DNA of 43,975 bases, taken from positions 1-43,975 of the IMG/VR virus record IMGVR_UViG_3300013121_000002; one strand, 5' to 3'. Position 1 is the first letter of the stretch; the number at the start of each line of letters is the position of its first letter. Below are positions 25,539 through 43,975 of this stretch, in pieces. Below the pieces are notes generated by a model. That model worked only from the letters and a program-made list of their open reading frames with translations, did not search any database and was not told the origin of the DNA. The translations under genes and the position numbers were made by a program. This stretch comes from a virus (taxonomy: Duplodnaviria; Heunggongvirae; Uroviricota; Caudoviricetes).

Positions 25539-26708
25539 TTAGTTCGCGTCGCCCTGATAGGCGCGGAAATCATCCGGGAAATCGGTGCGAGCCTTCTGCA
25601 ACGCCTCGGTACGCGACAGACGCGGATTGGCGGCGCGGACCTCATCGACCCGCTTCTCGAAATTCCTCGCCGCCGCCTTGGCAGCATCGCGCGAGCCGAT
25701 GGTGCTGAACGCACCCTTGATCGCGGCGTCACCGGCCTTGAGCATGGCGGCCAGCGCGTCGCCGGTCGCCTTGTCCATGCCGCCGATGGCCTTGAGCACC
25801 TTGGCCTTGACGGCAGTCTCGCCGGGTAGGTTGCCGAGTTCGTCAGCGGCGCGCTTCTCCAGCGCCTCCGTCTCGCGCAGATCGCGCTCCTTGGCGAGGT
25901 CGGACTGCGCCTTGGCGATGTCCTCGGCCTGCGCCTTCATGACGGCGAACACGTCGGGGCCGACCACCGACTTGCGGATCGTGCGACCGGCAATGACAAC
26001 CGTCTCGTCGCCCGAGGCAGCCTTGGCGATGTCGGCGGCGCGATCCGGGGCGGCCTTGGCGAGGAAGCCCGCCTTGTCGGCGTCCGGCAGCGCGTTGTAG
26101 TGCGCCTTCTCCACATCGGTGAGAGCAGCAATGGCCTTGAGCGTGTCACGCTCGGCAGTCATGGCCTTGAGCGCGTCGGAAGCCTCCTTCGCCGACTTGG
26201 CGACGAGAGCTTCCTTCTCGCCGGACGACTTGGCGAGATCGTTGAGGCGCTTCGTGAGGTCGGCGACCTCCGCAGAAAGCTGGTCCGCGGTCTTGTTCAT
26301 TTCATTTGCTCCTTGTTCGATGAGTTTCGATAGTTCTTCCTCGACCTCGGGCCATTTCGTTCGCGCAATAGCCATGAACTCCTCAACCGAGGTGCGCATC
26401 ATGGTCTGCTTGGCGTTCGGGTCGAGGTTGCCATCGGCCGCGATTGACCGCAGCGATCCCTCCAGCGCGTAAATGGCAGGTCCAAGAACCTCCATCACCT
26501 CGCCGAGTTTCTTTTCCTCCTCCTCCTGCGTGAGGAGTTCGGAGAACGTCTTGGCCCCAGAGCCCACGGACGGCCAATACTTGAGAACGGCATCGACCAC
26601 GTCAGCGGGCTTCCGCTTCAAAATGGCCGCCAGCGCGGGCTCCTGCGCCGGGCGATCAACTGCCGAAATTTCGTTTAGCTTGAAAGCCTTCATCCGCCGA
26701 CGCTGCAT
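25539..26708 (-). CDS. Capsid scaffolding protein; N-terminus carries an EISAVDRPAQ protease-type strand
   Basis: Ala/Lys/Glu-rich coiled-coil ORF between protease and capsid genes, with many hydrophobic-x-K motifs. Confidence 0.75.
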   Translation of the reverse strand: MQRRRMKAFKLNEISAVDRPAQEPALAAILKRKPADVVDAVLKYWPSVGSGAKTFSELLTQEEEEKKLGEVMEVLGPAIYALEGSLRSIAADGNLDPNAKQTMMRTSVEEFMAIARTKWPEVEEELSKLIEQGANEMNKTADQLSAEVADLTKRLNDLAKSSGEKEALVAKSAKEASDALKAMTAERDTLKAIAALTDVEKAHYNALPDADKAGFLAKAAPDRAADIAKAASGDETVVIAGRTIRKSVVGPDVFAVMKAQAEDIAKAQSDLAKERDLRETEALEKRAADELGNLPGETAVKAKVLKAIGGMDKATGDALAAMLKAGDAAIKGAFSTIGSRDAAKAAARNFEKRVDEVRAANPRLSRTEALQKARTDFPDDFRAYQGDAN

Positions 26709-26729
26709 CTGCGTTCACTCCCGAATTGG

Positions 26730-27791
26730 TTAGTCCACATCTTCATCGACGAGGCGGGAGCCCCCAATCGAGAAGCCCGTGAACTCGCCCGAGCGAAACT
26801 TGTTGAGCAGCACGTCGCTGTCCGGCCGCATCGCGATCATCAGGCCGGTCTGGCGCGTCTCAAGCCCCATTGCCTTGGCGATGTCGGCGGTGACGGGAAA
26901 CGCAAATACAATTTTCCCGATTTCATCGCCAACGTGCATTTCCTTAGCAACGCGACTGTCAAGCATGAAGTCTGTTGCGGCCTTGAGCATCGAGTCCTCG
27001 GGGATGTGGTCGCCCTGAACGTCGAAATACTCCTCGCCGTCGATCTTGCTAACGATTGCCCAGCCGAACACCAGCCCGAGGCTATCGTCAACTTTAATGA
27101 ATTGGACCTTCTCGACCATGCGATCTTTCCAGCCCTCGTCGATTTCCTTGAACTCCTCAGGACCGAACAACAGGTCGCCCGTGAAGGGCTGCACCTTGCT
27201 CAGGTCCACACCGGCCGCATCCCATGTGACCGTGACGTGCGGCTGGTAGCCTTCCCAATCCCACGACGCCCCGGCGTCCTTGAGTGCGGCCCAACGCTCC
27301 GCGAGATCGGGCGACGCAAACTTCAGTACGACCGCCCCACCATCACCGAGCGGGGTCACGCTTCGCTTGCCGCCGCGCACCATCATCGTCGCGACGTTCG
27401 ACGGCGACGGCCACTCCAGCGGCGTCTTGCTGTAGGCGATGGTGACGTGCATATCCTCGGCGGGCATCGTCGTCGGGAAGCCCTGCGCCTTCGCCCACTC
27501 GATGAGCTTGTCAGCGTTCAGCAGGGGCCGGTTGACGTACAGGGTCTTGCCTGCCGCGAACTTGAACACCTCGGCGAAGGATCGAGCGGTTGTCTTGCGA
27601 ACCCACTGACCGCCGTCCTTGGGCTTCTCCCAGCCGTTCCGCACCGCGGTCCATGCTGATCCGAAGGCTGCCGATTCGCTCTTGTCGTTGGCGAGCGAGG
27701 CGTTGACCACCTGCCGAAAACGGGTCTGCGCATCAGCCGGTAGCGCGTCGCGCACCGCCTGTGGAAGGTCCGCGTTCGTCGAGTATGGCAC
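26730..27791 (-). CDS. Fusion: ChaB + 2H phosphodiesterase (Acb1/T4 gp57B-like) + XkdF-like prohead serine protease
   Basis: ChaB: MPYSTNADLP..VR..LP..AQ..FR...N.....AF..AW.AV. 2H motifs: DMHVTIAYSK and YQPHVTVTW. Protease: GLVFGWA, D.QGD.IP, KEMH, FTGFSIGG. Confidence 0.85.
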   Translation of the reverse strand: MPYSTNADLPQAVRDALPADAQTRFRQVVNASLANDKSESAAFGSAWTAVRNGWEKPKDGGQWVRKTTARSFAEVFKFAAGKTLYVNRPLLNADKLIEWAKAQGFPTTMPAEDMHVTIAYSKTPLEWPSPSNVATMMVRGGKRSVTPLGDGGAVVLKFASPDLAERWAALKDAGASWDWEGYQPHVTVTWDAAGVDLSKVQPFTGDLLFGPEEFKEIDEGWKDRMVEKVQFIKVDDSLGLVFGWAIVSKIDGEEYFDVQGDHIPEDSMLKAATDFMLDSRVAKEMHVGDEIGKIVFAFPVTADIAKAMGLETRQTGLMIAMRPDSDVLLNKFRSGEFTGFSIGGSRLVDEDVD

Positions 27792-27915: not shown

Positions 27916-27918
27916 CAA

Positions 27919-28890
27919 TCACTCGACAGCCTCGGAACGGATTTCAACGGCGACGACACACCGGCAATTTATTACCGTTTCGGCTGGAGCGGTCATATCG
28001 CCGGGGTACATCAGCAGGTTCCCAAGCCCGTCCTCAAATGGCTCATCCATGCCGCGTTCCTGCAAGTCCATCGACGCGTGGTGATCGCGGGTCCGGGCGT
28101 CCGGCGTCGAACGCCAGATGCGCACCACGCGGCTCTTGGGCAGGCCAACCTGCTCGACCACCTGCCGCACACTCTCATCGCGCGCCTCGTTGACCGTCCG
28201 CAGCATTTCTGTCCGGGCGATGGTTTCCGAGCGCATCATCAGCGCCCGGTCGCGGTAGCGTTCCACCATGCGGTCGATCTGTGCCGACGATAGCGGGGTC
28301 TGGTTGGTGATCGCGGCGCTGACCGTGCGGTCGAAGCGCCTGTCGCGGAGATCGCGCGCCAGTGCCTCGGCCGAGCCGTTCTCCAGCAGGCGGCGATAGT
28401 TGTTGACGGCAGCGTACTGGCCGGTCGTCAGGCCAATGCTATCCCGGAACACACGCGCCGCAGCCACCGGGCCAAGCCCACGTTCGAGCGCGCCGGTCAT
28501 CGCCACCCGCAACGTCTCCCGCTGCTGCTCACGCAGCGCCTGCACGAACTGAAGCGTCGAGTTCCGCATCAGTCCGGCCGCGCGAGGGTTGGTCGGATCG
28601 AAGGCAATCCCGATAGCCGGGTAGCGCGAGCGCAGCGCCGCGGCGAGATGGGCAGCTTCAGCGCCGCCTACCGCCTGAAACGCATCGGCGATCACGGTGC
28701 CGAGACGAACGATGTGGCTGTCGATCACCGCCATCGCGCCGCTGAGATCACCCGCCTCCAGATAATCGGCGATCTCGCGCACGACATAGTCGCTGCGCGT
28801 GTTCCTGAGAAATTCGAGGAAGGCTTCCTGAACGACCACCTCCTGCTGACGTAGCAGGCGGTCAAGGCGTAGTTGCTCGGCGCTCGGCAT
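27919..28890 (-). CDS. Minor head protein (MuF / SPP1 gp7-like)
   Basis: RSETIARTE, W.STPDARTRDHH..MD...R.MDEPF......L.YPGD...P..E.INCRC. Confidence 0.92.
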   Translation of the reverse strand: MPSAEQLRLDRLLRQQEVVVQEAFLEFLRNTRSDYVVREIADYLEAGDLSGAMAVIDSHIVRLGTVIADAFQAVGGAEAAHLAAALRSRYPAIGIAFDPTNPRAAGLMRNSTLQFVQALREQQRETLRVAMTGALERGLGPVAAARVFRDSIGLTTGQYAAVNNYRRLLENGSAEALARDLRDRRFDRTVSAAITNQTPLSSAQIDRMVERYRDRALMMRSETIARTEMLRTVNEARDESVRQVVEQVGLPKSRVVRIWRSTPDARTRDHHASMDLQERGMDEPFEDGLGNLLMYPGDMTAPAETVINCRCVVAVEIRSEAVE

Positions 28891-28934: not shown

Positions 28935-29285
28935 TCAGTCGTCTACGCCCAAATCTCGTTTCAACAACATTCGGATGTAGGCAGCCACGCTCTTGCCGAG
29001 GGTGTGGGCTCGCGCCTCGACCGCGTCGTATAGCGTCTTGTGGCAAGTGACCCGGACGTGGTGTTGCCGCTTGTCGCCGACGACCTTCTGAACGCCGAGC
29101 TTAATGCGGCGATGCCGAACCGACATATAGGGTCGATCCAATTCCCGCGCCGTCGCCCGAATACGAACACCCCGCGCGGCATCGCGCCGGATGATCGCGT
29201 CCTCCTCGGGGGAGAACTTCTTCGCCAGCCGCTTTAGACGAACTCCTTCGGCGGCAGCGGTATCGTTTGATTCGTCGGTCGCCAT
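28935..29285 (-). CDS. Putative DNA-binding protein (HTH-like + ribbon-helix-helix)
   Basis: FSPEEDAII...G..IR..ARELDR...SVR.R..KLG followed by VRVT...LY..V..RA...GKSVAAYIR.LL. Start is uncertain (52-nt overlap with the upstream gene, no clear RBS). Confidence 0.6.
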   Translation of the reverse strand: MATDESNDTAAAEGVRLKRLAKKFSPEEDAIIRRDAARGVRIRATARELDRPYMSVRHRRIKLGVQKVVGDKRQHHVRVTCHKTLYDAVEARAHTLGKSVAAYIRMLLKRDLGVDD

Positions 29286-29611
29286 AGGTGGAGGGTATAG
29301 TTATGAACATTGATGTGATCGGTGACGGCGACGTGCAACTGCATCGCCACCTCATCGGGCCGAAAGAACATACGCTTGATGCGATCCATTTCAGCCCACG
29401 TCGGCGTGCGTGACGGCAGGCTGACCGAGACGTGATCCCAACCCTCCCCCGTAGTGGCAAGCACCTTGAGCATCGCCGCGCCGGGTATAACGATCAACAG
29501 TGGGATGTAGAACACCCCGGCTTTGGAGCGAGGCGGTAGCGGATCACCCCACAACGCCTTGACCTCGGGGCCTTCGTAACGAAACTGGTTGAGACGAGTG
29601 AGGTTGATCAC
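29234..29611 (-). CDS. Conserved phage protein (DUF7694-like)
   Basis: GWDHVSVSL..RTPTWAEMD.IK..FF..DE...QLH motif; start re-called at GTG 29611 (GTGA coupling). Confidence 0.75.
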   Translation of the reverse strand: MINLTRLNQFRYEGPEVKALWGDPLPPRSKAGVFYIPLLIVIPGAAMLKVLATTGEGWDHVSVSLPSRTPTWAEMDRIKRMFFRPDEVAMQLHVAVTDHINVHNYTLHLWRPTNQTIPLPPKEFV

Positions 29612-29865
29612 CAGAACGCCTCGACCTCGGCCTCGGTCAGCAGGCCATCGGGAATCTCGGCTGTCCAATAGACGCGAACGATCTCATCCACCAAACGATA
29701 CTCATCCGGTCGATCACTAATCGGCATCCCCTGCTGCACCCTGTTCTCGGCCAGCCACTTCACCGGATGCTCCTCGATGATGGTGACGTTATCCACCTCA
29801 TCGCCCGGCCGCCCCACCCTGAACTGCGCGCGGAAGCAGTAAGAGATCATCCACCTAGTCGCCAT
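29608..29865 (-). CDS. Hypothetical protein
   Basis: 85-aa ORF filling the operon gap, with overlapping start/stop contexts. Confidence 0.5.
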   Translation of the reverse strand: MATRWMISYCFRAQFRVGRPGDEVDNVTIIEEHPVKWLAENRVQQGMPISDRPDEYRLVDEIVRVYWTAEIPDGLLTEAEVEAFW

Positions 29866-30415
29866 TGATCCACTCCGGGGTTGGTGCGCCGAGCATTTCT
29901 CGCGTCCATCCTGCTAACGAACGCACCCGGTCTTTTAGCAGCGGCAACTGCTGTTTCCAAGCGTCTCGGTAGCGTTCGCCCTCCGACCAGAGTTTGTTAT
30001 CGTCATAGCGCCCGCTAACCGTCATCGGGATGCCGCACAGGATCAGCTTGTCGCAGTGGCGCAGGCCGACGAGGGTGCCCAGCAGTCCGCTCGCGCCACC
30101 CTCGCACTCGATGTAGTGCATCGGCAACTTGAGCCCTCGGCCGAGCTTGTGGTTGCGGAAAATGCCAGTCCAGAGCAGGCCCGGCTCCGGTCGCCCGGCG
30201 TCACGGCGCACCTTCAGCCACGGCTCAAACAATTCGGGATGGAACGACGCCCAGTGGTGGACCGGACCATCGTAGTCGCGCCCGGCACGCTTCACCGCCA
30301 CGATGATCGGCTCGACCGGGGCAATCAGGCGCTTCGCCTCGGCGACTTCCTCCCACACCCCGGCACCGCGGCCGAGGATGAGGCCAAACCGACCATGCAG
30401 TGGTGGATAGTTCAC
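29855..30415 (-). CDS. MAF/DUF115 (MptE-like) Rossmann-fold glycosyltransferase-like protein
   Basis: GLILGRG..VW, IVAVKRA, GGASGLLG..VG....DKLILCGIPM; resembles motility-associated-factor type domains. Confidence 0.6.
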   Translation of the reverse strand: MNYPPLHGRFGLILGRGAGVWEEVAEAKRLIAPVEPIIVAVKRAGRDYDGPVHHWASFHPELFEPWLKVRRDAGRPEPGLLWTGIFRNHKLGRGLKLPMHYIECEGGASGLLGTLVGLRHCDKLILCGIPMTVSGRYDDNKLWSEGERYRDAWKQQLPLLKDRVRSLAGWTREMLGAPTPEWINGD

Positions 30416-31167
30416 GATTCGATACGCCGACGCTCATCCCACCAAGGATCGGCGAACTCGACATCCTGCAAATGAGCGAACCACGGACCACCGCTTGTGT
30501 AATGGATGATGCCCGGCATTCCACCGGGCACCTGATAGGTGTGATTGTAGCCGACGAGATAGTTCCAATAGAGCGGCAATTCGCCGATCTCGTCATCCAG
30601 CAGCCACGAGAAGCGATGCAGGTCGCGTCCCGGTAATGAATTGAGGATGCCGGTCGAGGATATGTCGCGTAGTACGTTGTTCGACGGATGATCGCAATTG
30701 AACAGCATCACCGATGACCAATTCTTCCGCGCGTAACGCGTCTGGACCTGACCATCCATCTTCATGTCGTTGCGCGGCTCGTGTCGATGGTGAACGCAGA
30801 ACAGTGCCTTATCCGGGTGCGCCTCGACCAACTCGAACAACGTAACCAAGTCCGTGGTGACGAGCATGTCGCAATCCATGAACAGGCTCCAGCCGGTCTG
30901 TGCGAGGTAGGGCACGAAGAACCGGCTGATCGCGAACTCGGTACTCATCGGCGCGTCGGAAATGGTGTCGTACAGGTGACCGTCCTTGATGGTTGTCGGA
31001 CGGGTGTATAGCCCCAACTGCCGCAGATCGCTCAGGCGCAGCGTGCGGATCGGCAACCGCTCACCATCGCGAAGGTGGCGCTGGATAGAGTGCCGCGCAA
31101 CCAGCAGAGCTTCTTCTTCGCGCGGATCATAACCAATATAGATCGAACGGTTCACTGAAGTCCCCAT
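30412..31167 (-). CDS. GT-A fold glycosyltransferase (GT8-like)
   Basis: IYIGYDPRE, STEF..SRF.VP, LFMDCDML (DxD), RKNWSSVMLFN, IGELP..WN.LVG, IIHYTSGGPW. Confidence 0.85.
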   Translation of the reverse strand: MGTSVNRSIYIGYDPREEEALLVARHSIQRHLRDGERLPIRTLRLSDLRQLGLYTRPTTIKDGHLYDTISDAPMSTEFAISRFFVPYLAQTGWSLFMDCDMLVTTDLVTLFELVEAHPDKALFCVHHRHEPRNDMKMDGQVQTRYARKNWSSVMLFNCDHPSNNVLRDISSTGILNSLPGRDLHRFSWLLDDEIGELPLYWNYLVGYNHTYQVPGGMPGIIHYTSGGPWFAHLQDVEFADPWWDERRRIES

Positions 31168-31170
31168 TTG

Positions 31171-31677
31171 TTAGACTGTGTCGGTGAGCGGTATCTTTGG
31201 GCGGGTGTAGGCCATGGTGCCGTGATGAGCGCAGTATTTTCCGCGCTTGATCTCGCGCCCACAGATAACGAAATTGCCCTTGGCCTCGCGCGGATCATCC
31301 CACATCGGCCACGGACACTGCTTGCGCCAGTCGTCGCCGGTACGCGGGAACGGCAGCCTCAGTGGTGTGAACTCGACAACGACCGTGGCGACCGGAACGA
31401 CAGCGACCGGGACGACCGTGACGACAGCCGCGGGCACTGGGTCGAGGTGTACTTTGGTGTAGGTCGGCGCAACGAATGAGGTCGCCTTGTTGAGGTTGTA
31501 TGTCTTGCGCCGCGGACCCGGCACCTTCTGACCGAGATTGAGCCGTGCCGCCTTGTTGGCAATTGCACCACGCGGCAGGTCAAGCTCAGTGACCAGCATC
31601 GAGATCGACACGTTCGGATCAGCCCACGCCTGACGCAGGCGCTCGATCCGCTCATCGGTCCATGTACTTTTATTCAC
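31171..31677 (-). CDS. gcrA: GcrA-family cell-cycle transcriptional regulator
   Basis: WTDERIERLRQ.W.....S...L..EL...R.AI..K..RL.L and C-terminal CPWP..D......CG......YC..H...AY. Confidence 0.88.
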   Translation of the reverse strand: MNKSTWTDERIERLRQAWADPNVSISMLVTELDLPRGAIANKAARLNLGQKVPGPRRKTYNLNKATSFVAPTYTKVHLDPVPAAVVTVVPVAVVPVATVVVEFTPLRLPFPRTGDDWRKQCPWPMWDDPREAKGNFVICGREIKRGKYCAHHGTMAYTRPKIPLTDTV

Positions 31678-31680
31678 ACA

Positions 31681-32380
31681 CTACTCCATCAACCAGCTAA
31701 GCAATTCTTGTGGCGTACACCGCGGGAAGCAAGTAACTAATGATCTCGGGCTACCGTTGCGAACCTCGATGTTGTGTTCCTTCAACTGAGGCAGCGCCGT
31801 CTCGAACAGCCACGGCAGGTGATCAAGACTACCATTCGGACGCCCCACACCGATACCGTGTTCGTCGCGAGTGCCGTCCACCCCGAGGATGCCGATCTTC
31901 CTCGGCCGAAGCAGGTAAGCCAGCCCGAGCGCGCCCCACGCGCTGTTGCCAGTGTGCAGCGCGCCCGGATCATCAGACAGGGCAATCATGTTGCGGCTGG
32001 GCTCCTTGCCAGCGACACGATGCAGGTAGGTCACATGCTCTGGCGCGTGAACGCGGTGGAAGGACAGCCGAGCCCGCGCCGTGCCATAATCCAGTGGCAC
32101 CGCCGCGTAGTAGTGTGTCCTTGCCCGTGGCGTGTTCATCAGCGCCTGCGCTCGCGGGTTGGGATCGACCGTCACCCATGCGCTGGCCGTGAACGCGAGG
32201 ATCGCCTGCTTGACGGCGATAGTGAACACGCCGGGCAGTCGGTCGAGCACGCTAAAATCCTCCAGACGAAGGATCGACGGCCCGGTCGCAACGATCAGGA
32301 TTCGGTCGGATTGACCTGTGACACGGCCGAAGCGGACGCCGTCATAGGCGACGGCACCTCGCTTGGCTTCGACGGCGACA
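31681..32380 (-). CDS. Second MAF/DUF115 (MptE-like) glycosyltransferase-like protein; start unresolved
   Basis: ILIVATGPS, TIAVKQA, W.TVDP, HTGNSAWGALGLAYLL..RKIGILGVDG motifs; no ATG/GTG/TTG in frame close to the conserved N-terminus. Confidence 0.65.
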
Positions 32381-32921
32381 TGACCATCAGATACTGCGCC
32401 GGGTCCGCTGGCAGCGTCAGGAACCAGTTCCCGTCGAACCCCAGTTGCAGCGTCCGGCGTCCCTTCTGGTCGCGCTCGGGCAACCTTCTTAGGAATTGTT
32501 TGACCGCGCGTTTGACGCCGGGGAAATCGGGGTGGTTGAAATCGTGACCGCACAGCAGCCCTCCGGGACGCACCTTCGGTGCCCAAGCCAGAATGTCGGC
32601 AGCCACAGCCTCAAACGAATGATCCGCGTCGATGTAGACGAAATCGAACGTCGCATCCGCTATCAGCTTGGCTGCCGCCAGCGAATCCATGTGCATAATC
32701 GTGTAACGATTGGCATAGGGTAGAAGGTTGCTGATCGTGTGATCCTTACCGTGCGGACGCTCGGCCCAATTATCGACCAGCGTCAACTGCAACAGCCGGT
32801 GACGGTCGAACAGGGCACGCGAGAACGCGCCGACGAGAACTCCGACTTCCGCGCCCAGCACCGTTCTATCGGCGGGCAATTTGTTTAGTAACGACCAAGC
32901 ACGTTTGCCGCGTTCAGCCAT
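32295..32921 (-). CDS. Class I SAM-dependent methyltransferase (Methyltransf_24-like)
   Basis: GAEVGV..G, LTLVDNW, FDFVYIDADHSFEAV.ADI.AW.PKV.PGGLLCGHDF. Confidence 0.9.
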   Translation of the reverse strand: MAERGKRAWSLLNKLPADRTVLGAEVGVLVGAFSRALFDRHRLLQLTLVDNWAERPHGKDHTISNLLPYANRYTIMHMDSLAAAKLIADATFDFVYIDADHSFEAVAADILAWAPKVRPGGLLCGHDFNHPDFPGVKRAVKQFLRRLPERDQKGRRTLQLGFDGNWFLTLPADPAQYLMVMSPSKPSEVPSPMTASASAVSQVNPTES

Positions 32922-33588
32922 TGTATTCCATCGCTATGTTGCGTTGATCCAAAGCGTGCATGACACGATAGTTGGGAACGGCGGCGAGCACGGCGTCGCG
33001 CTCCTCCGCACCCAACACCTCGACGAGGAGAAGCGGCTTGCACCGCTCCAGCGTCTCGCGTGCGCCGACAAGCGCCTTGGGCTCGTTACGCTCAACGTCG
33101 AGCTTGATGAATGATACGTCCTTACCCCGCAGCACGTCGTCGAGGCGCACCGTGCGGACATTGGCGAGCAGTTTCTTGCCCTCGCGCGGGATCAGGCTGG
33201 CCGCCGAGGTAAGTGGTGCAATGATGTTGGCGTACAGCGGGATCAGTTCTCCATCCTGATCCGACACCGCGGACGCGTGAACCGTCACGGCATGTTCGAC
33301 GGCATTCATGCGCAGGTTCGCACGCAGGCGCACATTGACAGCCGGGTTAGGCTCGAACGCGATCACCTGCCGACCCATCATCGCCGCGGCCAGCGAATAA
33401 ATGCCGGTGTAAGCGCCGACATCGACGAACATCCCGGAGCGGAGCTTGCACTGCTGCGTCCAGAAGGTCAGCGACTCAGGCTCGAACGGACGCGTCGCCG
33501 CCACCCGGTCACCGCCTGCGATCAGCTTAACCTGCGTCAGCCCGGCAGGAACTACCGTTGCGGCCGGAAACAGACTGTGCGTCCTCAA
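32914..33588 (-). CDS. FkbM-family methyltransferase
   Basis: FVDVGAYTGIYS, VIAFEPNP, AVSD..G, TVRLDD, FIKLDVE..E..AL.GA..TL....P.L.VE; start re-called at TTG 33588 (TTGA coupling). Confidence 0.9.
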   Translation of the reverse strand: MRTHSLFPAATVVPAGLTQVKLIAGGDRVAATRPFEPESLTFWTQQCKLRSGMFVDVGAYTGIYSLAAAMMGRQVIAFEPNPAVNVRLRANLRMNAVEHAVTVHASAVSDQDGELIPLYANIIAPLTSAASLIPREGKKLLANVRTVRLDDVLRGKDVSFIKLDVERNEPKALVGARETLERCKPLLLVEVLGAEERDAVLAAVPNYRVMHALDQRNIAMEYNG

Positions 33589-34421: not shown

Positions 34422-34422
34422 C

Positions 34423-34563: not shown

Positions 34564-34619
34564 GGATTGAACTCCGGGTAGGTTTCGACCGTACCGTCCC
34601 AATACTCGATGCGGCTCAC
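34560..34619 (-). CDS. 19-codon mini-ORF (GTG start) repeating the C-terminus of 34762..35076
   Basis: GTG AGC CGC ATC GAG TAT TGG ... AAT CCA TGA; GTGA overlap with the upstream stop and ATGA overlap with the downstream start. Confidence 0.4.
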   Translation of the reverse strand: MSRIEYWDGTVETYPEFNP

Positions 34620-35705: not shown

Positions 35706-35769
35706 TTCAAACTCCCCTTATGTTGAGATACGGGCCGGGCAGTCCTACACCGCCCGACCCGTCTCCCCA

Positions 35770-36270: not shown

Positions 36271-36929
36271 GCTTTCGTTATCCAGTCGATAGCCGCATTG
36301 TGCGGCTTGAGCGGCCCGGCGAACACGATGATAGCTGCACCGGGCGGCGGCGCAGTCCTGTTCTTAACGAGCGTGCGACGGTCGATGAAAAAGCCGGGCG
36401 GCGTCAAGTCCTGCAACAGCGGCAGGTCCGGGCAGAGCAATTCGACCGCCTTCTGATCGCCGTAGTGCCCCGCCTGCGTCATGTAGTAGGACCGGCGCTC
36501 CTCGAACCGCTCCCATACCCGGCGCAGCTTCGGGCCGATCACCTGCGTGCAGGAGCCGTACCGGCACGGGTAGGCACCGTTGCTGGCGATGCGCGCGAAG
36601 TTCGAGGTGATCGCGAAGTCGGCTTCGACCTGCGCCAGCGGCGTGAGATCGCCGATGATGACGGTGTCGAGATCGAGGTAGATGACCCGGCGTCCGGCAC
36701 GCCACGTCGGCTCATACAGCATCATTTTAGCCCACCATCCGGGCAAACCCGCAGGAGCTTCGACGCGCTCGACGCCGAGCGGTAACATGCGCGTGGGATG
36801 ATCGGTGATGCAGGCGCGGTCAAACGGGAGCGGCAGGTGGCGCTCGACCATGTTGAACAGGCGCTGAACGTACTCAGGACCGTATTTCGTTCCGGTCCAG
36901 ACTACCGCGACGACGAGCGGCGCGGTCAT
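36261..36929 (-). CDS. GT-A fold glycosyltransferase (GT8-related phage family)
   Basis: W.GTKYGPEYV.RL..MV.RHL, CITD, GWWAK..L, YLDLDTVI (DxD), I.VF.G..KPH. Confidence 0.85.
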   Translation of the reverse strand: MTAPLVVAVVWTGTKYGPEYVQRLFNMVERHLPLPFDRACITDHPTRMLPLGVERVEAPAGLPGWWAKMMLYEPTWRAGRRVIYLDLDTVIIGDLTPLAQVEADFAITSNFARIASNGAYPCRYGSCTQVIGPKLRRVWERFEERRSYYMTQAGHYGDQKAVELLCPDLPLLQDLTPPGFFIDRRTLVKNRTAPPPGAAIIVFAGPLKPHNAAIDWITKAWR

Positions 36930-37327
36930 GTCGTCTCCTCAATAACTTTAGGGCCGCGCCAGTAGAAATCACCATGACCGCGGGGCATGTAGCGAACAAT
37001 TGGCGGTCGGCGGTTGAGGAGGATGTCGATCAGCGAGCCAATCGGGCCACCCGGCTCGCCGCGTGAGTCGCGAATGAATGAGTTGGTGAACTCGTCAAGC
37101 TGTGCGCCATGTTGCAGTCCGACCGAAATAATCATCGCCGAGTCCTTGACCGACACATCGAGGGTAGTGCCCATCTTGTCGGTCGCCAGCCAGACCTCGC
37201 CGACACGGCCATCTGAGTAGAAGCCTATCGTAGCGAGAAAAATCTGTTCACGGTCATCAGGCCAGCGATGATTGAACTTGAACGTCTCCGACAAGCGGCG
37301 ACTTGGCATTGATTCGCGTTCGCTCAT
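36926..37327 (-). CDS. Stand-alone TSCPD-like domain (class II RNR C-terminal family)
   Basis: RR..ETFKF, ATIGFY.DGRVGEVW, K.G..L....KD.A..IS.GLQHG motifs; GGGGAG RBS. Confidence 0.65.
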   Translation of the reverse strand: MSERESMPSRRLSETFKFNHRWPDDREQIFLATIGFYSDGRVGEVWLATDKMGTTLDVSVKDSAMIISVGLQHGAQLDEFTNSFIRDSRGEPGGPIGSLIDILLNRRPPIVRYMPRGHGDFYWRGPKVIEETT

Positions 37328-37425: not shown

Positions 37426-37974
37426 TTAGAGCGGACTGGACAGCCCCAAATCCTGCCCGGTGACGGACACACCATCAACGCCAGCGGCCAGTGTACCGAA
37501 GCTGACGAAGCTGCCTGCGAGGTAGTCGCGGATCAATTCGTCAACGATCAGCGGAAAGCGCAGCGGCGTGCCCTCGGCACCGCGGAAGTAGGTGAGGTTG
37601 ACCGACCCTGCGGTGATCGACTGGAGCTTCTGCGACTGGTTCTGCTCCGTCTGGAGATCGGAGCCGTCGAGCAGTGCCGATGCCATTTCGATGCTCGCGT
37701 CGATGATGTTCTGCGGCACCACGTCGTCCTCGACGCCATCGACCCCGGTGCCCGAGCGCGGCCACGCCAGCGCCTGCCCGGTGGTCAGGTACTTCTCGCC
37801 CAGCCACTTCTGGCGGTCGAGGATGCGGGTCGCCGTCACCAACGCCTTTGACTTGTCCTCTGCCGACGCCGTGGGCCACGCCACCGGATGAGTTGATGCC
37901 GCAAGGTAAAGGTCGGCTTCGCCAATGTCGGCGTAGACCTCATACGCCTGCGAGCTAATCATTACAGTTGACAT
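37426..37974 (-). CDS. DnaT-like head-tail connector (adaptor) protein
   Basis: Y.D..EAD.YL, W......K..AL..ATR.LD...W.G......QAL.WPRSG, VP..I..A..E.A, QSITAGSV.LTY. Confidence 0.85.
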   Translation of the reverse strand: MSTVMISSQAYEVYADIGEADLYLAASTHPVAWPTASAEDKSKALVTATRILDRQKWLGEKYLTTGQALAWPRSGTGVDGVEDDVVPQNIIDASIEMASALLDGSDLQTEQNQSQKLQSITAGSVNLTYFRGAEGTPLRFPLIVDELIRDYLAGSFVSFGTLAAGVDGVSVTGQDLGLSSPL

Positions 37975-37983: not shown

Positions 37984-39504
37984 CTAGCTCAACCGACGCC
38001 GCGGCAGCGGGGCGCGCTCACGCAGCAGCTTCGCTATTTGCGCTTTGATGGCGTCAAAGGACGGCTGCCACCGAGAACGAATCCGGTTCCATCGTCCTCC
38101 ATCATCACCACTGGAACTGGCGAATTGCGATAGGACTCGGGAATACGCGCGTCGGGCGTCGTCTCTTTGGTCACGGTCACTGCCGGTTTGGAGTTCTGTG
38201 CCGATGAACTCGGCCCGGCCGCGCCGAAGGCTGACTTGCGAACCATAACGATTTGCTCCTTGCGTGATGGCAGCACCATTCTGGCCGCCAACGTCAACGA
38301 TGATGACCCGAGCCCCGCCTGCACCGGGGATCAGCGTGTGATTGGCGAGGCCGTCCGCCAGCAGGTTCTGGTGGATTGTAGCAAGGTCGCCGGTTGCGTG
38401 AAACTCTGCCAAGACGGACCCGCCGTCCGGGCTGGACTGGAAGATAAGTGCGGACTTCTGGTCCGCAAGGTAGCCCTGCATCGCCGCGGCGGCGCGCAGC
38501 GTATCCCAGTCGGCCCGGTAAGTGGTGAGCATGAAGGCGTCCTCGGCACCATCCTGCCACGCCCCGACGACGTTGACCTGCGAGTTGGCGTGCAGGCCAA
38601 GCTCACGGTTGATGTCGGCGACCGCCTTCGCCATCATCCGGTGGCGCTCGCCCTGAAGGTTGCGCATCGCCGTGTCGAATGTCTGATCCGACACGCTAGG
38701 GCTAACGAATGTTGCACCGAGCGCACCGCCGCCGCTGCCATCCGTCCAGCGACCACCGCCAGTCTGCCCAGCGGGCACGCGCGGCTGGTTGGGGTCGAAC
38801 TTCTCGACACCCCAGCCGAGGCGAGCATCCCACGCCTCCCCTGCACCGAGCCGCACCGCGGCGTACATCAGCAAGCGGTTCTTGAGCGGCACGCCGAGAT
38901 CGGCGAGCGCCCGCAGGAAAATCTGGTCGGCCTGACGCCGCGTCGGCACGGCGTGCGACGTGTAGAGATAATCATGGATCACGCCCGCACGGGCGAGCGG
39001 AAGCTGGTTGGATGGTATGCTGCGGACCTCCTCGGGAAGCCACTGCGGCGGGATCGAGGCCATGTCCGTCTCGTAGCCCTCGGGCACCGTAATCGTTAGC
39101 CCGGTCACGCGGTCGGTGTAGGACAGCGGTGCGGTCAGGCGATAAATCTCGCCGCCAGTGCCGAGCCCGGAGCCGGGCACCTGTTCGCCGGTCGGCTCGG
39201 ACTCCAGCGGACCCGAGAAGCTGCCACCGCCCTCAAGGTCGGCGTTGATGTCCTCGGCGTCGAGCGTCTTGGCATCGTTGCCCGGCGCATCCTTCCAACG
39301 GCCGAGGCGATCTCGCGGCTGCTTCGGATCGAATTTCTTCTCAACGGGCTTGGCGTCGAGAAACATCGAACCGCCGCGCTCGTCGTTGAACAGCACCTTG
39401 ATGAGTTCGGCGGTTGCCTTGGTTGCGGGCTCGAACCCCCGCGTGATGTAGGCGACCGTCGCCGGTCGCCCCCCAACTGTCGTCTGCTCGATCATCCCGC
39501 TCAT
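37984..39504 (-). CDS. Multidomain head-associated protein: two KFDP tags, DUF1353 domain, C-terminal SAM-lyase-like region
   Basis: KFDPKQPRDRLGRW; DUF1353 motifs ITVPEGYETDMASIP, AGVIHDYLY, RRQAD.IF..AL...GV, MYAAVRLG; KFDPNQPRVPAGQTGGGRWT. Confidence 0.75.
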   Translation of the reverse strand: MSGMIEQTTVGGRPATVAYITRGFEPATKATAELIKVLFNDERGGSMFLDAKPVEKKFDPKQPRDRLGRWKDAPGNDAKTLDAEDINADLEGGGSFSGPLESEPTGEQVPGSGLGTGGEIYRLTAPLSYTDRVTGLTITVPEGYETDMASIPPQWLPEEVRSIPSNQLPLARAGVIHDYLYTSHAVPTRRQADQIFLRALADLGVPLKNRLLMYAAVRLGAGEAWDARLGWGVEKFDPNQPRVPAGQTGGGRWTDGSGGGALGATFVSPSVSDQTFDTAMRNLQGERHRMMAKAVADINRELGLHANSQVNVVGAWQDGAEDAFMLTTYRADWDTLRAAAAMQGYLADQKSALIFQSSPDGGSVLAEFHATGDLATIHQNLLADGLANHTLIPGAGGARVIIVDVGGQNGAAITQGANRYGSQVSLRRGRAEFIGTELQTGSDRDQRDDARRAYSRVLSQFASSSGDDGGRWNRIRSRWQPSFDAIKAQIAKLLRERAPLPRRRLS

Positions 39505-39767
39505 TCCGCATACCCCTCCGGTTCGAGCACTGATCCCGGCATCCCGTAAGGACGGATCGTGCCGTCAACATTATAGCAGCCGACCTTGGCGTGCCCGGCG
39601 ATCTCGCCCCATGGCAGCCGATCATCAACGCGGTAATCCTTGAAGCCGTGCCCGCGCCCGCCACCCGGCAGCAGCGACAGCGACATGAGCCGGATGACGC
39701 CCTCCTCGTCGGCGGGATGGATCAAGCTGTAGAAGATACCTGTGCGTTCGGTCATTAAGTTCCTCAA
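39501..39767 (-). CDS. Hypothetical protein
   Basis: 88-aa ORF between the two tagged proteins; likely start MTERTG after a GAGGA RBS; ATGA-coupled to the next gene. Confidence 0.55.
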   Translation of the reverse strand: MRNLMTERTGIFYSLIHPADEEGVIRLMSLSLLPGGGRGHGFKDYRVDDRLPWGEIAGHAKVGCYNVDGTIRPYGMPGSVLEPEGYAE

Positions 39768-42700
39768 TTCATCATTCGCGACCGCAGGCCCGCCAGCAGC
39801 GCCGCCTGCTGCGCTACCGCAGCATCGGTCGCCGGGAAGCTCGGCATATCCTGCCCGTCAAGAATTGTTCGCACTCCCACAGCGTTCAACTGCCGCCGCA
39901 CTTCGGCTGTAGTACGCGGGAAGTTTGCAAACCAATCCTCCCGCGACAGGCCGTTAAGCGTATTGATCCGATCCGACTGTACCATAAGCCCGGTCAACTG
40001 CGCGAAAATCTCAGGCGAGGTGTGGAAGTAGCTCGTCGCATCGCGCACGCTCTGCGTCTGGCTGTAGGTATCGTCGCGCAGCCTGATCGAGAACCCGTCC
40101 GTGCTCGACCCACGAATATCAGCGGGAAGATCGACGTAGACCGGCGTGCCATCCGCCGTGCTGGTCAGTACAGCGCCGAGACGAAGGTCGTGGTCGAGCT
40201 TGTGCGCCATTTCGTGTGGAACCACCCACGCCAGCACGTCGCCAATGCGCTCGCTGTTCGGTAGACGACGCTCCTCGTAGGTGCCCTTCGTTTCGAGCGT
40301 GCGGGCAATGCCCGTCTCGTAGATCGAAATCGTTCCCCTTGGGATCAGCGTGCCATCAGGCGTGACGTGCTCCGTCTCGTAGAAGGCACCCATCACCGTG
40401 TTCGACAGCGACACCGGCAAATCGCGCTCGGGCTCCATGCGCATGTCGATGTCACGACGCACTGCATCCCGGAAACTGTCATTCGTCTGGTTCGCCGCAA
40501 GCTCGACTGCCGCGGCCACAGCCGGGTTCGTCGAGGACAGCCGCCTGACACTGACTTGATAGGGTGGGGTCTGCGCGCGGTCGCCGAGCGCGAGTTGTGG
40601 GTTGGCTGCGCGATCCGCCGTCGCGAACCGTCCGCGCTCGTCGTGGTACGGGTTGAACTTGCCTACGCGATCTCCGCTGGCAACTCCTCCTCCCATCCCG
40701 GAGGCGGATTGTTTTGATAGGCGTGTAGCCGGTACATCTCCCTCGTAAGAGGAATGCCCATCGCTTGCATAAAGGCCAGCGTCGGGTCGCGTCCCAACCC
40801 AGAGGGGCGGGTTGATTCCTCCGGCAATGTCGTAGATTTCGTTTCGTGCGGCGTTAGCGGTGATTTCACCATCTTCGTGCCTCCTCCAAACGGCAGCGAT
40901 AGTATCCCGGTTGGCGTCGGTCTTGAACTTAGCCGGGAACAGGCCGCGGGTCGCTTCCCATGTAATGGACTGCATTTCACGCGGCAACAGACCGCGTGCG
41001 CTGGCCGCCATGCGATACGCGTCGGCATGAACCCCGTAGGTACCAAGGGCACCAGTCAATGCCGACCTCGGCGGGCCGGTGAGAACCGATATAACCTCCG
41101 ACGACGTTCCCGCCAGCGGCGCAAGCAACGCTGCTGCCACCGCATGGGTATCAATAGTGACATCACCCTGCGTGGCGTCAGGCGCGATTATATTGTTATA
41201 GAAGCTGCGGACCTTGTGACGATTGCCCAGAAGCGCCGATACGTTCGCGCGAGACGGATCGCGCAGCATACCGACCGCCTTGCTTATCTCGGTTAGTCCT
41301 TTCCACTGGATTCCCCAACGTGTGCCATCACCCTTGGTAACGAAATCACCGAAAGTGCCCTCTGGCAGTAGCATCCGGTAGCCGGGATCGTCATAAGTCT
41401 CGCTGAACACCCGTATCCATGCACCGGCCGCATGATCCCGCACATCATCCGGCAAGGCCAACACCTCGGCCAGCGTCTTGCCGTTGATCAGATCGCGCTC
41501 CTGCGCGTAGGCATCCGAGGGGAAAATTCGATCAGCCGTCGCGGTCATATCATCCGACCACTCACGGTCCTGCTGATACGAATAGGCATCAAGGACGCGC
41601 TCCGCGAGGCTGACGTTCTGGAACCAATCCGTCTGCGGCGACAGCGACGCGAGTACGCCAGCGACCGCTGTGTCGGGAATGCCGTAACGCTCACTCCATG
41701 CATCCGTCAGCTTCCGCGCGCCGTCGTACCACAGCTTTGCACGATCACGCGTTTCCTCGTCGAGCGAGTCATGAAGCCACAGAAGATTGTCGCTAACGAA
41801 CTGCGTGTAGCGAGCGACTGTTTCCTGCCTGCTCTCACCTCTGACCACCGGAAATCCATCGGTCGCGCGCAGCAGCTTAACGACCTTGGCAGCAAACTTG
41901 GGATCAGCATCAAGCGCATCAGACCCGATGGTGAGGTTGCCATTAACAGCATCCTCAGTGGTCCCGACCGCCCACGGCTGCCGGGTCGAAACACGCTTCG
42001 GACTATCACCCTGCGCTGCCGCCGACCGCCCGTCCGCAGTCGCGAACCGGCCGCGCTCGTCGTGGTACGGGTTAAATTTGCCGACCTGCCCGGCGAGCAC
42101 CGGGTAACGCGCCTCGACCGCGGCATAGAGATCGATCCAAGGCTGCGGGTTTTGTACCCACGCCCGCGGCTTCCAGTCCGACGCCTTCACCGTCCGACCA
42201 AGCTGGACCGACCGGCGTGCGATCTCAGCCAGCGTTTCATGCACCGCCGCACGGAAGTCGGCAGGAGCGAAATCATTCTCCTGCGCCTGCACCCACCACA
42301 TTTCGCTGTAGTCGGTCAGACCATCCGAACTCGCCAGCTTCTCCGGGAATGAAAGGATCGGATCAACGAGCTTGAAGGTCGTGCCAGAGATACCGCCACC
42401 CCTCAGATCGTTAACGTAATCGTCGAGGACGCGCTGCCACTTCTGGTGCTCGATCTCATGCGCAACGATGCTCTCCAGCGAATCGCCATCCGTCATATTC
42501 TCAGGCGTCACCTCGCTTGGGATAACGTAAATGTTGCCAGTGGACATTTCGGCAAACGCCATCGGCTGAAACCTCTCGCCGAGAATTTCAGGCCGCCCCT
42601 CCTCACTCACCGAAGCCAAGAACATCTTCGCCGGGTCGTAGCCCCGCTTCGTGGCGATCTGCTTGACGCTGTCAAGGAGCGTCTGCTGCTCAGGCGTGAG

Positions 42701-43975
42701 GTCCGTCAGCGTGACCGTGCCGGGCGCTTCGGTCGCGCGCCCCTCCGGGCCGTAGGTGAACCGACCACGCTCGTCATGGTACGGGTTGAACTTCGTCACC
42801 GGATACTGGCTGGCGATCACCTGCTGCATCAGGCTGAATGGCACCGGCACCGGACCTCCGGGGAGACTGCCCGGATCGAGATCGGAGAACTCCCCGCTGG
42901 AATTGATGCCGCCGCCCAGCCGCGTTTCGTAATCAGTCCGCGCCAACTCAGCCAGCGTTTCGTGAACCGCAACGTAAGCGGTGTATTTGCCGGGCGTTTT
43001 CTCGTAGTTCTGCCAGAACAGATTCGCGTAACGAAGGTCGCGCAGCGGACGATTTGTTAGCTCCAATCCAACCAGAGCCATCTGCGCCGGGTCGTCGAGC
43101 CACCGCTTGATCTCAGCAACAGCCTCGGGCTGACCGAGGTTATCGCCAGCCTCGATCAAGCGCCGCGTGTTCTCCCACTTGGCGTGCGTGATCTCATGCA
43201 ACAACGTCGGCCCAAGCGAACCCATTGTCCGGTCGCTAACGAAATGGTCCGGGTTCACCCGAACCACCCCGTTGATGTGATCGTAGGTCGCCACCACCTG
43301 CGTCGGCCGCTCGCCCGGCGACATAAGCTCCACACGCTGCGGGTCGAACCCGAACTGCACTGCGTACTCGCGCGACGCCTTGAGCAGGCGCTGGTTCGCT
43401 TCAGTGGCACGAGTGAAGAAATCATCAACAGCCCCACCACCCGGTGCCTCGGCGAACCGGCCGCGCTCATCGTGGTTCGGGTTGAACTTCTCGTAGAAAC
43501 CAAATGCCGACTGCCGAGCCACCTTCGGCCACAGCGCGTTCACGAGGTGGTAGAAATCCTGCCACGGCTGCGCCACGCTCGACGGCACGCTGCCGTGCTG
43601 CGCGTGCAGGCTGGCGATCTCAGCCAACGTCTCATGGATCGGCCAGCGATACACATCCTGCTGCTCACGAACGCCCGCGTCGGCCGTAGCCTTCCACCAC
43701 GATGTGCTGTAGGGCGTCACGCCGTCTAGCGCCCGCAGCGTGTTCATCATGGCACCATCGTTGAGATAATGACTGATGCTGCTATGCAGCGCCCGCTGCT
43801 CATCCGTGAGGTCAGTCTGACCCCCGGCGTTTTCAATGCGGATGTTGGCGTCCGCCTTCTTGTACGCCTTCCACACGGTGTGCCACTTCTGGTGCATAAT
43901 CTCGTGAGCGGTGACTTGCTCGGCCTCAGACGCCAGAATATCGTTAGTGTGCAGCACCACCTCACCATGCTGAAG
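39764..43975 (-). CDS. Large polyvalent protein (>1400 aa, 5'-truncated): four HExxH zincin modules, an HhH-like domain, four KFNPxHDERGRF tags
   Basis: Frame is open to the window edge (CTT CAG CAT GGT GAG GTG...). HEIMH, HEITH, HEIEH and HEMAH motifs; tags at 43454-43489, 42758-42793, 42044-42079 and 40625-40660. Confidence 0.85.
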   Translation of the reverse strand, partial: LQHGEVVLHTNDILASEAEQVTAHEIMHQKWHTVWKAYKKADANIRIENAGGQTDLTDEQRALHSSISHYLNDGAMMNTLRALDGVTPYSTSWWKATADAGVREQQDVYRWPIHETLAEIASLHAQHGSVPSSVAQPWQDFYHLVNALWPKVARQSAFGFYEKFNPNHDERGRFAEAPGGGAVDDFFTRATEANQRLLKASREYAVQFGFDPQRVELMSPGERPTQVVATYDHINGVVRVNPDHFVSDRTMGSLGPTLLHEITHAKWENTRRLIEAGDNLGQPEAVAEIKRWLDDPAQMALVGLELTNRPLRDLRYANLFWQNYEKTPGKYTAYVAVHETLAELARTDYETRLGGGINSSGEFSDLDPGSLPGGPVPVPFSLMQQVIASQYPVTKFNPYHDERGRFTYGPEGRATEAPGTVTLTDLTPEQQTLLDSVKQIATKRGYDPAKMFLASVSEEGRPEILGERFQPMAFAEMSTGNIYVIPSEVTPENMTDGDSLESIVAHEIEHQKWQRVLDDYVNDLRGGGISGTTFKLVDPILSFPEKLASSDGLTDYSEMWWVQAQENDFAPADFRAAVHETLAEIARRSVQLGRTVKASDWKPRAWVQNPQPWIDLYAAVEARYPVLAGQVGKFNPYHDERGRFATADGRSAAAQGDSPKRVSTRQPWAVGTTEDAVNGNLTIGSDALDADPKFAAKVVKLLRATDGFPVVRGESRQETVARYTQFVSDNLLWLHDSLDEETRDRAKLWYDGARKLTDAWSERYGIPDTAVAGVLASLSPQTDWFQNVSLAERVLDAYSYQQDREWSDDMTATADRIFPSDAYAQERDLINGKTLAEVLALPDDVRDHAAGAWIRVFSETYDDPGYRMLLPEGTFGDFVTKGDGTRWGIQWKGLTEISKAVGMLRDPSRANVSALLGNRHKVRSFYNNIIAPDATQGDVTIDTHAVAAALLAPLAGTSSEVISVLTGPPRSALTGALGTYGVHADAYRMAASARGLLPREMQSITWEATRGLFPAKFKTDANRDTIAAVWRRHEDGEITANAARNEIYDIAGGINPPLWVGTRPDAGLYASDGHSSYEGDVPATRLSKQSASGMGGGVASGDRVGKFNPYHDERGRFATADRAANPQLALGDRAQTPPYQVSVRRLSSTNPAVAAAVELAANQTNDSFRDAVRRDIDMRMEPERDLPVSLSNTVMGAFYETEHVTPDGTLIPRGTISIYETGIARTLETKGTYEERRLPNSERIGDVLAWVVPHEMAHKLDHDLRLGAVLTSTADGTPVYVDLPADIRGSSTDGFSIRLRDDTYSQTQSVRDATSYFHTSPEIFAQLTGLMVQSDRINTLNGLSREDWFANFPRTTAEVRRQLNAVGVRTILDGQDMPSFPATDAAVAQQAALLAGLRSRMMN

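Follow-up and report, generated by a model that had tools for sequence, protein, structure and literature searches.

From comparative scaffold statistics we infer that the prohead protease of a 108-kb tailed phage, an XkdF-type (Peptidase_S78_2) enzyme fused to a ChaB and an Acb1-like domain, cuts after [V/I/L/M]-x-Lys with a preference for Ser or Ala in the next position, like HK97 gp4 at F-N-K↓S. The phage is represented by the viral record IMGVR_UViG_3300013121_000002, 107,975 bp with direct terminal repeats; the window, that is, the whole stretch of DNA analysed (43,975 nucleotides), corresponds to bases 1-43975 of that record, and the region from 25539 onwards, discussed here, is its head-morphogenesis module, encoded entirely on the minus strand. 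A sequence-only reading of this region had proposed that one Lys-directed protease removes the scaffold and frees an Acb1-like phosphodiesterase and further modules inside the head. This proposal is partly supported: well for the scaffold and moderately for the borders of the Acb1-like domain, while the part concerning the tags (short repeated motifs ahead of cargo domains) is weaker and the SAM-lyase and glycosylase labels given to two cargo modules are unsupported.

In the proposed maturation course, the scaffold, the protease fusion and the cargo would co-assemble into a prohead. The protease would chop the scaffold at about 17 sites, free itself from ChaB and Acb1 at V-R-K66 and V-E-K228, and trim or separate tagged cargo at the [V/I/L]-x-K ahead of each tag; each released module would begin with the conserved core F-N-P-x-H-D-x-x-G-R-F. 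We regard degradation of the scaffold after Lys as probable on the comparative evidence. The whole course, with an XkdF-type protease acting after Lys on scaffold, Acb1 borders and tagged cargo, falls just short of an even chance, and delivery of the resulting pieces into the next host, argued by analogy, is evenly balanced.

A hydrophobic-x-Lys signal in scaffolds and its putative protease

The scaffolding protein (25539-26708, on the minus strand like every feature of the region given below; 389 aa, 9.5% Lys) is matched by two PHROGs of unknown function and contains every one of the hydrophobic-x-Lys tripeptides named for it in the sequence-only reading. The enrichment check called for there was carried out against composition shuffles and gave a positive answer: the scaffold holds 17 [VILFY]-x-K tripeptides where 7.8 are expected (z 3.9, 2000 shuffles), and the protease fusion holds 12 where 5.9 are expected (z 3.0). 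Corresponding tripeptides ending in Glu, Arg or Asp show no enrichment by the shuffle test in either protein. Across 52 combinations (13 offsets by 4 charged residues), a hydrophobic residue at position -2 of Lys is the top signal, with z 3.8 in the scaffold and 3.1 in the protease.

A phmmer search with the scaffold against all fetched open reading frames (ORFs) returned only the self-match, and scaffolds of XkdF-type (Peptidase_S78_2) modules were therefore grouped by a shared N-terminal motif, not by similarity search. This motif reads K-L-K-x-M-x-L-x-S-V-D-L-V-x-x-G-A-N in scaffolds of XkdF-type modules and E-I-S-A-V-D-R-P-A-Q in the present phage; beyond it, the rest of the scaffold shows no similarity by phmmer. 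Among 24 scaffolds of this kind, [VILM]-x-K exceeds z 3 in 16 and reaches a maximum of 6.8, and [VILM]-x-E stays near 0 in the same proteins. The background, taken from 460 other Lys-containing ORFs, has a mean z of 0.45 (standard deviation 1.3), several of its high outliers being themselves scaffold-like. In the 22 non-redundant scaffolds, [VILM]-x-K accounts for 339 of the 694 Lys residues, and Ser or Ala follows 50% of these against 17% of the other Lys (Fisher 6e-21), with enrichments at +1 of 4.2x for Ser and 1.9x for Ala. Acidic residues are favoured at P5 and P4 of these sites, and bulky hydrophobic and acidic residues are avoided at P1'. Cultured relatives carry the signal as well, with z 5.5 for gp72 of Roseobacter phage RDJL Phi 1 and z 5.6 for gp051 of Rhizobium phage RHph_TM3_3_9.

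Scaffolds of well-studied phages serve as controls. T4 gp22, which is degraded by gp21 at [LI]-x-E, gives z 3.7 for [VILM]-x-E and 0.2 for x-K; P22 gp8, T7 gp9 and SPP1 gp11, whose phages have no head protease, score about 0 on either measure. For the HK97 delta domain, z is 2.1 for x-K, and the sequence of HK97 gp5 at its known processing point reads F-N-K103↓S104, its maturation cut being made by gp4 after residue 103 (PMC10275583). Since the T4, P22, T7, SPP1 and HK97 controls behave accordingly, the shuffle statistic can be taken to report protease specificity, and in the XkdF-type scaffolds it suggests a preference for hydrophobic-x-Lys before Ser or Ala. The comparative scaffold statistics thus lend support to a prohead protease of this preference as the likely agent of scaffold degradation. 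The sequence-only reading had added that the specificity is not established for the family, which holds for Peptidase_S78_2 but not for the sister enzyme HK97 gp4, given its cut in gp5 (PMC10275583).

Two points weigh against this interpretation: the literature searched contained no specificity study or cleavage data for XkdF/PF14550 (S78_2) proteases, and hydrophobic residues are also raised at -5 of scaffold Lys (z 1.8), so that helical periodicity contributes to the signal. Taken to its end, the latter point would trace the whole hydrophobic-x-Lys excess to the amphipathic helices or coiled coils of scaffolds rich in Lys, with no bearing on a protease, and the heptad-like (a/d/f) pattern of -2 and -5 together with the 9.5% Lys of the scaffold would fit such an origin. 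We consider it highly improbable, because the helical scaffolds of the protease-less P22, T7 and SPP1 have z values of about 0, T4 gp22 carries the code of its own protease instead, Ser/Ala enrichment at +1 is not a heptad feature, and the tripeptide is also conserved in non-helical linkers.

The putative protease is encoded immediately beside the scaffold as part of a 353-aa fusion of ChaB, Acb1 (2H phosphodiesterase) and XkdF-like prohead protease (26730-27791; PF06150, PF23474 and PF14550), in which ChaB occupies residues 9-66, Acb1 82-223 and Peptidase_S78_2 230-345. The last of these (26757-27104) matches PF14550 with 32.4 bits against a curated cut-off of 24, and D257, H286 (26934-26936) and S341 (26769-26771) are invariant in alignments of 20 and of 43 protease homologues. 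Across this domain the protease of RDJL Phi 1 is 61% identical. For the AF2 model of the domain (pLDDT 74.5), the best of 48,161 chains in a VIA structure search is T4 gp21 (5JBL; Z 7.8, root-mean-square deviation 3.4, 108 residues aligned), with herpesvirus proteases ranking below it (varicella-zoster virus protease, Z 5.0). By this model, the domain has the T4 gp21/herpesvirus assemblin fold. A Foldseek search of the model against the PDB yielded no row at E <=0.001, and hhalign of the protease alignment against the single HK97 gp4 sequence gave a probability of 6%, with a visibly similar N-terminal protease motif and a plausible alignment.

Conserved Lys sites at the borders of the Acb1-like domain

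The Acb1-like domain (27123-27548) matches PF23474 with E 1.2e-40. Across 43 homologues H115, T117 and H185 are invariant and T187 is at least 90% conserved, which leaves both 2H HxT motifs (H115-x-T117 and H185-x-T187) intact. The identity of the domain as Acb1 is confirmed at family level, and cleavage of cyclic oligonucleotides is its predicted activity.

That [VILFY]-x-K bounds this domain, as had been claimed, proved correct. Ahead of it stand V64-R-K66 (27594-27602), a predicted cleavage site at the ChaB/Acb1 border, and V75-F-K77 (27561-27569) in the ChaB-Acb1 linker, where the context ARSFAEVFK-F resembles the leader half of a tag without the core; behind it, V226-E-K228 (27108-27116), the predicted cleavage site between Acb1 and protease, lies in a 6-residue linker. 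The enrichment at domain borders that was to be checked is also present within the fusion, 3 of its 12 sites falling in 24 linker residues (binomial P 0.04).

These border sites are conserved in homologues. The ChaB-Acb1-protease or Acb1-protease architecture has 508 homologues, and nearly all of the 120 among the matches listed carry PF23474. An alignment of the borders was built from 43 homologues with about 50-60% pairwise identity to the window protein and a mean column identity of 36%. Within it, K66 is present in all 40 homologues aligned at that position, 39 of which have V, I, L, M or F at position 64, and x-[TV]-E-K228 is found in about 41 of the 43, directly followed by a variable insert of 0-100 aa. 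Further, P-V-E-K stands directly after the protease domain in about 7 other polyproteins, ahead of Nudix or other modules. On this evidence we lean slightly towards processing at the Acb1 borders.

Several homologues extend this architecture. In many of the fusions the conserved Lys of one border, be it ChaB/Acb1 or Acb1/protease, is followed at once by an extra module of the approximate form K-[VIA]-G-A-R-[HN]-[ST]-x-x-D ... I-Q-x-x-H-D-x-A-x-x-L-G-A-x-C. In the viral contigs G030, G015, G011 and G023, the XkdF protease domain is followed by P-V-E-K and then by a Nudix-like domain, whose motif, judged by eye, is G-G-H-I-E-x-G-E-T-P-E-x-A-A-x-R-E-A; this domain would be a further cargo fused to the protease.

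The fate of the Acb1 domain after assembly can be seen in another way, compatible with the proposed maturation course: the Acb1-protease fusion may act late in infection on behalf of the producing cell, whether in place of the next host or in addition to it. Without being injected, it would act as an antidote to a prohead-protease-triggered cyclic-oligonucleotide-based anti-phage signalling system (CBASS), present at the very place and time at which the trigger arises. T4 gp21 is reported to switch on a CD-NTase through cleavage of an exposed loop (bioRxiv 10.64898/2026.03.04.709575), the Acb1+S78_2 architecture is widespread (508 matches), and the HxT motifs are intact. Nevertheless, the conserved Lys sites at both Acb1 borders suggest release, and Acb1 is joined to the portal C-terminus in other phages, fitting a location in the virion; purely late action in the producing cell seems to us rather doubtful. 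The two portal-Acb1 fusions compared have no [VIL]-x-K before Acb1, and the head-maturation protease annotated in their phages is a different one (DUF2213 by its label in the RHEph04 record). Together with the conserved border sites, this contrast supports the claim of the sequence-only reading that hydrophobic-x-Lys bounds the Acb1 domain.

Tags, cargo proteins and the role of the conserved core

The tags occur in two proteins. The first is a polyvalent protein whose C-terminal 1403 of 2774 aa lie in the window (39764-43975); its ORF runs to 48088, directly downstream of the Portal_Mu gene. The second is a 506-aa cargo protein (37984-39504) consisting of a leader, a tag, DUF1353, another tag and a ferredoxin-like C-terminal domain. 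All six tags described in the sequence-only reading are real, four of type A (K-F-N-P-x-H-D-E-R-G-R-F) in the large ORF and two of type B (K-F-D-P-x-Q-P-R...G-R-W) in the 506-aa protein. The type-A tags are Y-E-K plus FNPNHDERGRF at 43454-43495, V-T-K plus FNPYHDERGRF at 42758-42799, and V-G-K plus FNPYHDERGRF at both 42044-42085 and 40625-40666; the type-B tags read V-E-K-K-F-D-P...G-R-W (39295-39345) and V-E-K-F-D-P-N-Q-P-R...G-R-W (38746-38808). The statement that hydrophobic-x-Lys starts every tag is therefore true of YEK, VTK, both VGK and one VEK copy, and slightly off for the other, in which the tripeptide is offset by one residue (V-E-K-K-F). Counting the part of the large ORF beyond the window, the two proteins carry 13 tags (11 in the full 2774-aa ORF and 2 in the 506-aa protein), one of the out-of-window copies having the prefix A-F-K, and the leaders before the first tag are 38 and 56 aa long. 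Taken over its whole length, the 506-aa protein shows no enrichment of the motif (z 0.5), and the giant protein shows a weak one (z 1.7). The 'IAK' at the end of the 506-aa protein, also listed as an instance of the motif, lies 15 residues from the C-terminus and has no special support.

Comparison across genomes suggests a tag of two parts. A DNA scan that fixed the core and put no constraint on the codon before it returned 156 distinct contexts, with Lys at -1 in 81% and Val, Ile or Leu at -3 in 74%; a scan with K-F fixed and N-P free gave 98% conservation for Asn and 80% for Pro, the latter being replaced by Glu, Asp, Arg or Ser. Of the 24 complete tag-bearing genomes, 19 encode S78_2, 3 encode S78 and 20 encode MuF. 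[VILMF]-x-K precedes the core in 56/56 tags in 23 S78_2 genomes versus 2/9 for S78 genomes, and the association of prefix with protease family is significant for both the -3 residue (Fisher 1e-5) and the Lys (0.0035); the HK97-type (S78) genomes have mostly other prefixes, e.g., G-I-K, E-L-R, E-Q-H and L-Y-H. Protease domain and tags share one ORF in 10 of 20 S78_2 genomes. The tag is nearly always followed by a cargo domain (median downstream length 244 aa) and lies within 30 residues of the start in 62 of 171 tag ORFs. The shortest leaders, found in relatives, measure 7-9 aa, take the form M-x-x-F-x-E-I-L-K and end in the code of the protease; none of the ORFs starts at the core. These comparisons indicate that the tag is probably a two-part element, with a prefix matched to the resident protease family and a universal core for another role, probably head docking. 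Cleavage at the tags is proposed tentatively, at somewhat below an even chance.

Several observations argue against cleavage at the tags. The S78_2 genomes comprise about 4 protease lineages at 40% identity, and the covariation therefore reflects few independent events. Phe, the invariant P1' residue of the tag, occurs at only 4 of 369 scaffold sites (0.39x), with Leu, Ile and Tyr also depleted, and the 11-residue invariant core is far longer than a cleavage site needs, which suggests docking. Where the core is preceded by Leu, His or Arg, the scaffold-like ORFs of the genome are not enriched in the matching tripeptide and some are x-Glu-enriched; the x-Glu cases have Leu or His at -1, and the core appears to work there without a matching site. 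Complex prediction for the protease domain with a tag segment scored 0.00, which is no answer in either direction.

Some of the same observations feed the view that the tag is mainly a capsid-targeting or docking peptide akin to the capsid-targeting sequences of T4 and of DarB of phage P1, left uncut between Lys and Phe, with the polyvalent protein staying whole or being cut elsewhere. The [VIL]-x-K prefix would then form part of the docking surface and contact a head component specific to each lineage of head modules. Downstream of the Lys the tag has seven invariant positions, Phe is disfavoured at P1' of scaffold sites, and the core is retained where Leu, His, Arg or Asn occupies -1. MuF, present in 20 of the 24 complete tag genomes, shows that other partners are as available as the protease, and the tag always stands ahead of a cargo domain. 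DarB of phage P1 has an N-terminal targeting signal of 10-30 residues (PMC9024508). Pure docking leaves unexplained, however, why the prefix varies with the protease family and agrees with the residues preferred at P5-P1 in scaffolds, and why tags lie between the protease domain and fused cargo, where a targeting signal would be redundant. We regard it as a minority possibility, on the unlikely side.

Self-cutting of the tag, either at Asn in the manner of FlhB/YscU (N↓PTH) or at an acid-labile Asp-Pro bond, would require no protease at all. It draws on the N-P-x-H of type-A tags, the D-P of type-B tags and the 98% conservation of Asn at +2 when this position was left free. Yet Pro at +3 is only 80% conserved (Glu, Asp, Arg or Ser instead), type-B tags have no His, the prefix would have no explanation, and N↓PTH autocleavage requires a folded domain; among the explanations considered, this one is barely credible.

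The wider distribution of tags is documented by a few further observations. Three x-Glu-rich scaffold-like ORFs, at 5824-7590 (plus strand) in L097 and at 8782-10077 and 2390-4312 (both plus strand) in L123, have z 3.3-4.1, which hints at a T4-like code in the tag genomes with Leu/His prefixes, and one x-Glu-rich scaffold-like ORF starts with a degenerate tag, L-M-N-P-Y-H-D-S-K-S-G-K-F. The Nitrososphaera provirus Pro-Nvie1 (FR725450.1) has a tag copy in a gene annotated 'putative portal', which extends the motif to an archaeal virus. A tblastn search of cultured phages with a 30-aa tag segment retrieved 9 weak records, none with both tags and a proteome; a tag profile run against PDB sequences gave chance OspA repeats only; and the tag sequence had no relevant literature match, a MuF-toxin paper containing neither the motif nor text on linkers.

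The cargo itself is larger than had been described. The giant ORF contains two ART-PolyVal domains and a weak GNAT match, both in its out-of-window part and both additions to the payload list, besides DUF7178 and four HExxH modules, three of them paralogous. Because it combines several unrelated effector domains, some of them typical of the family, in one polypeptide encoded beside portal and head genes, the ORF belongs, judging by its sequence, to the polyvalent proteins described by Iyer et al. 2017. Two of the three paralogous HExxH...HETLAE zincin-like modules lie at 42077-43450 and the third at 43487-43975 and beyond; DUF7178 (Pfam) follows at 40679-42001 and the C-terminal module with its HEMAH motif at 39767-40621. 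The zincin label is plausible but weak: HExxH is present four times, and the Foldseek rows (selecase, abylysin, PprI and ArdC) all have E >0.1, the minimal zincins selecase and abylysin reaching a probability of 0.85-0.87 for the module model. No homologues of the zincin module were found at near or longer lengths. Two other labels found no support. The module called glycosylase-like is DUF7178, which has no solved relative, and the supposed SAM lyase, residues 249-501 of the 506-aa protein, matches no Pfam family at E <=0.05 (PF23780 included); the Atlas model of this domain has TM 0.39/0.52 to the S-AdoMet_lyase cluster, and the P-II, ACT and ABM ferredoxin-like clusters score alike. PDB sequence searches returned nothing for the C-terminal half of the 506-aa protein, DUF7178 or the zincin modules.

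The zincin-like modules could in principle cut the polyvalent protein themselves, leaving the prohead protease uninvolved. Iyer et al. 2017 (PMC5512222) proposed such self-processing by metallopeptidase domains of polyvalent proteins and also described 2H phosphoesterases fused to head proteins. The giant ORF has four HExxH modules whose best Foldseek rows are minimal zincins, PprI and ArdC. On the other hand, HExxH is present in only 30 of 205 tag-bearing ORFs (15%), so zincin self-processing is no general rule; the Foldseek E values exceed 0.1, the module has no homologues, and the link between tag prefix and protease family would remain unexplained. We consider this route very unlikely.

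For cleavage of the cargo by the prohead protease, the composition of the cargo is an objection: the cargo proteins of this phage show no Lys avoidance, MuF being the only Lys-poor protein, and folded domains would need protection. The cargo would be packaged, judging solely from gene position and the ART-PolyVal family, and its modules would be freed inside the head and injected, judging solely from gene position and analogy; this, too, counts against the proposed course.

Genome setting and comparison with known systems

The module is arranged in the order Portal_Mu (outside the window), the 2774-aa polyvalent ORF, an 88-aa ORF, the 506-aa DUF1353 protein and adaptor Ad1, followed by an 8-kb accessory block, MuF, the ChaB-Acb1-Peptidase_S78_2 fusion, the 389-aa scaffold, a cement protein and a lambda-E-like capsid protein. 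RDJL Phi 1 and RHph_TM3_3_9 have the same core arrangement, running from portal through Ad1, MuF, protease, scaffold and cement to capsid. For the ORF at 37426-37974, PHROGs give head-tail adaptor Ad1 and Pfam gives DnaT_2 (putative ssDNA-binding); its position adjoining head genes favours the adaptor. The accessory genes (28935-37327, about 8 kb) between Ad1 and MuF encode FkbM-type and other methyltransferases, RNase H, GcrA, DUF7694 and a NikA-like protein, together with weak glycosyltransferase-like matches below Pfam cut-offs; RDJL Phi 1 has one small gene at this place. Since GcrA is encoded in the block, the host is probably an alphaproteobacterium. The MuF-like head morphogenesis protein (27919-28890, 323 aa) has 1 Lys against 41 Arg, a K/(K+R) of 0.02 compared with a genome median of 0.27, while the adjacent scaffold and protease genes are the most Lys-rich of the region. 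This poverty may reflect avoidance of a Lys-directed protease; the MuF of RDJL Phi 1 is not Lys-free.

If the proposed scheme is true, it would provide the first cleavage code for the large XkdF/Peptidase_S78_2 family, derived purely from sequence and tested on T4 and HK97 as controls. Polyvalent proteins, which since 2017 have been described only as strings of domains, would gain a route to individual enzymes, and an anti-CBASS enzyme would travel with, or be released by, an enzyme class recently reported to trigger CBASS. A bolder extension, possible but speculative, is a portable 'load and release' tag in thousands of phages, whose core would dock cargo in the prohead and whose protease-tuned prefix would free the module, or Acb1, inside the head before injection; the code of a whole protease family could then be read from genomes alone, and about 20 added residues could load any protein into such capsids, as a general head-loading tag. 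Sharp predictions follow for the cultured relative RDJL Phi 1 and for peptides.

Among known systems, T4 offers the closest parallels. The protease has the fold of gp21 (Z 7.8 to 5JBL), the scaffold is studded with a hydrophobic-x-charged code detected by the same shuffle test as in gp22, and the short N-terminal leaders ending in the protease code (7-9 aa in relatives) resemble those of the internal proteins IPI-III, in which the leader is a capsid-targeting sequence ending in the protease code. Unlike T4, however, the system would have Lys instead of Glu at P1, has a conserved 11-residue core after the leader that is absent from T4, and combines many cargo modules in one polypeptide, with ChaB and Acb1 carried by the protease itself. 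T4 Acb1 (gp57B) shares PF23474 and both HxT motifs with the domain described here, which lies between ChaB and the prohead protease, is flanked by conserved Lys sites and has a predicted activity.

HK97 gp4 (Peptidase_S78) offers the experimentally known F-N-K103↓S104, that is, hydrophobic-x-Lys before Ser (PMC10275583), but belongs to another Pfam family (S78 versus S78_2), and in HK97 a part of the capsid protein itself acts as scaffold, whereas here the scaffold is separate and accompanied by a lambda-E-like capsid protein without propeptide. DarB of phage P1 (PMC9024508) is a similar case, a large anti-restriction protein being brought into the head by an N-terminal signal of <30 residues; the capsid protein of that phage, by contrast, is processed after Glu120. 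The polyvalent proteins described by Iyer et al. (PMC5512222) likewise unite many effector domains in a single chain encoded next to portal and MuF genes, matching the two ART-PolyVal domains and zincin-like modules of the giant ORF, although term searches of that text found neither a repeated tag nor a prohead-protease code. As reconstructed here, the system would be a T4/HK97-style maturation scheme extended to polyvalent proteins, not a separate kind of system.

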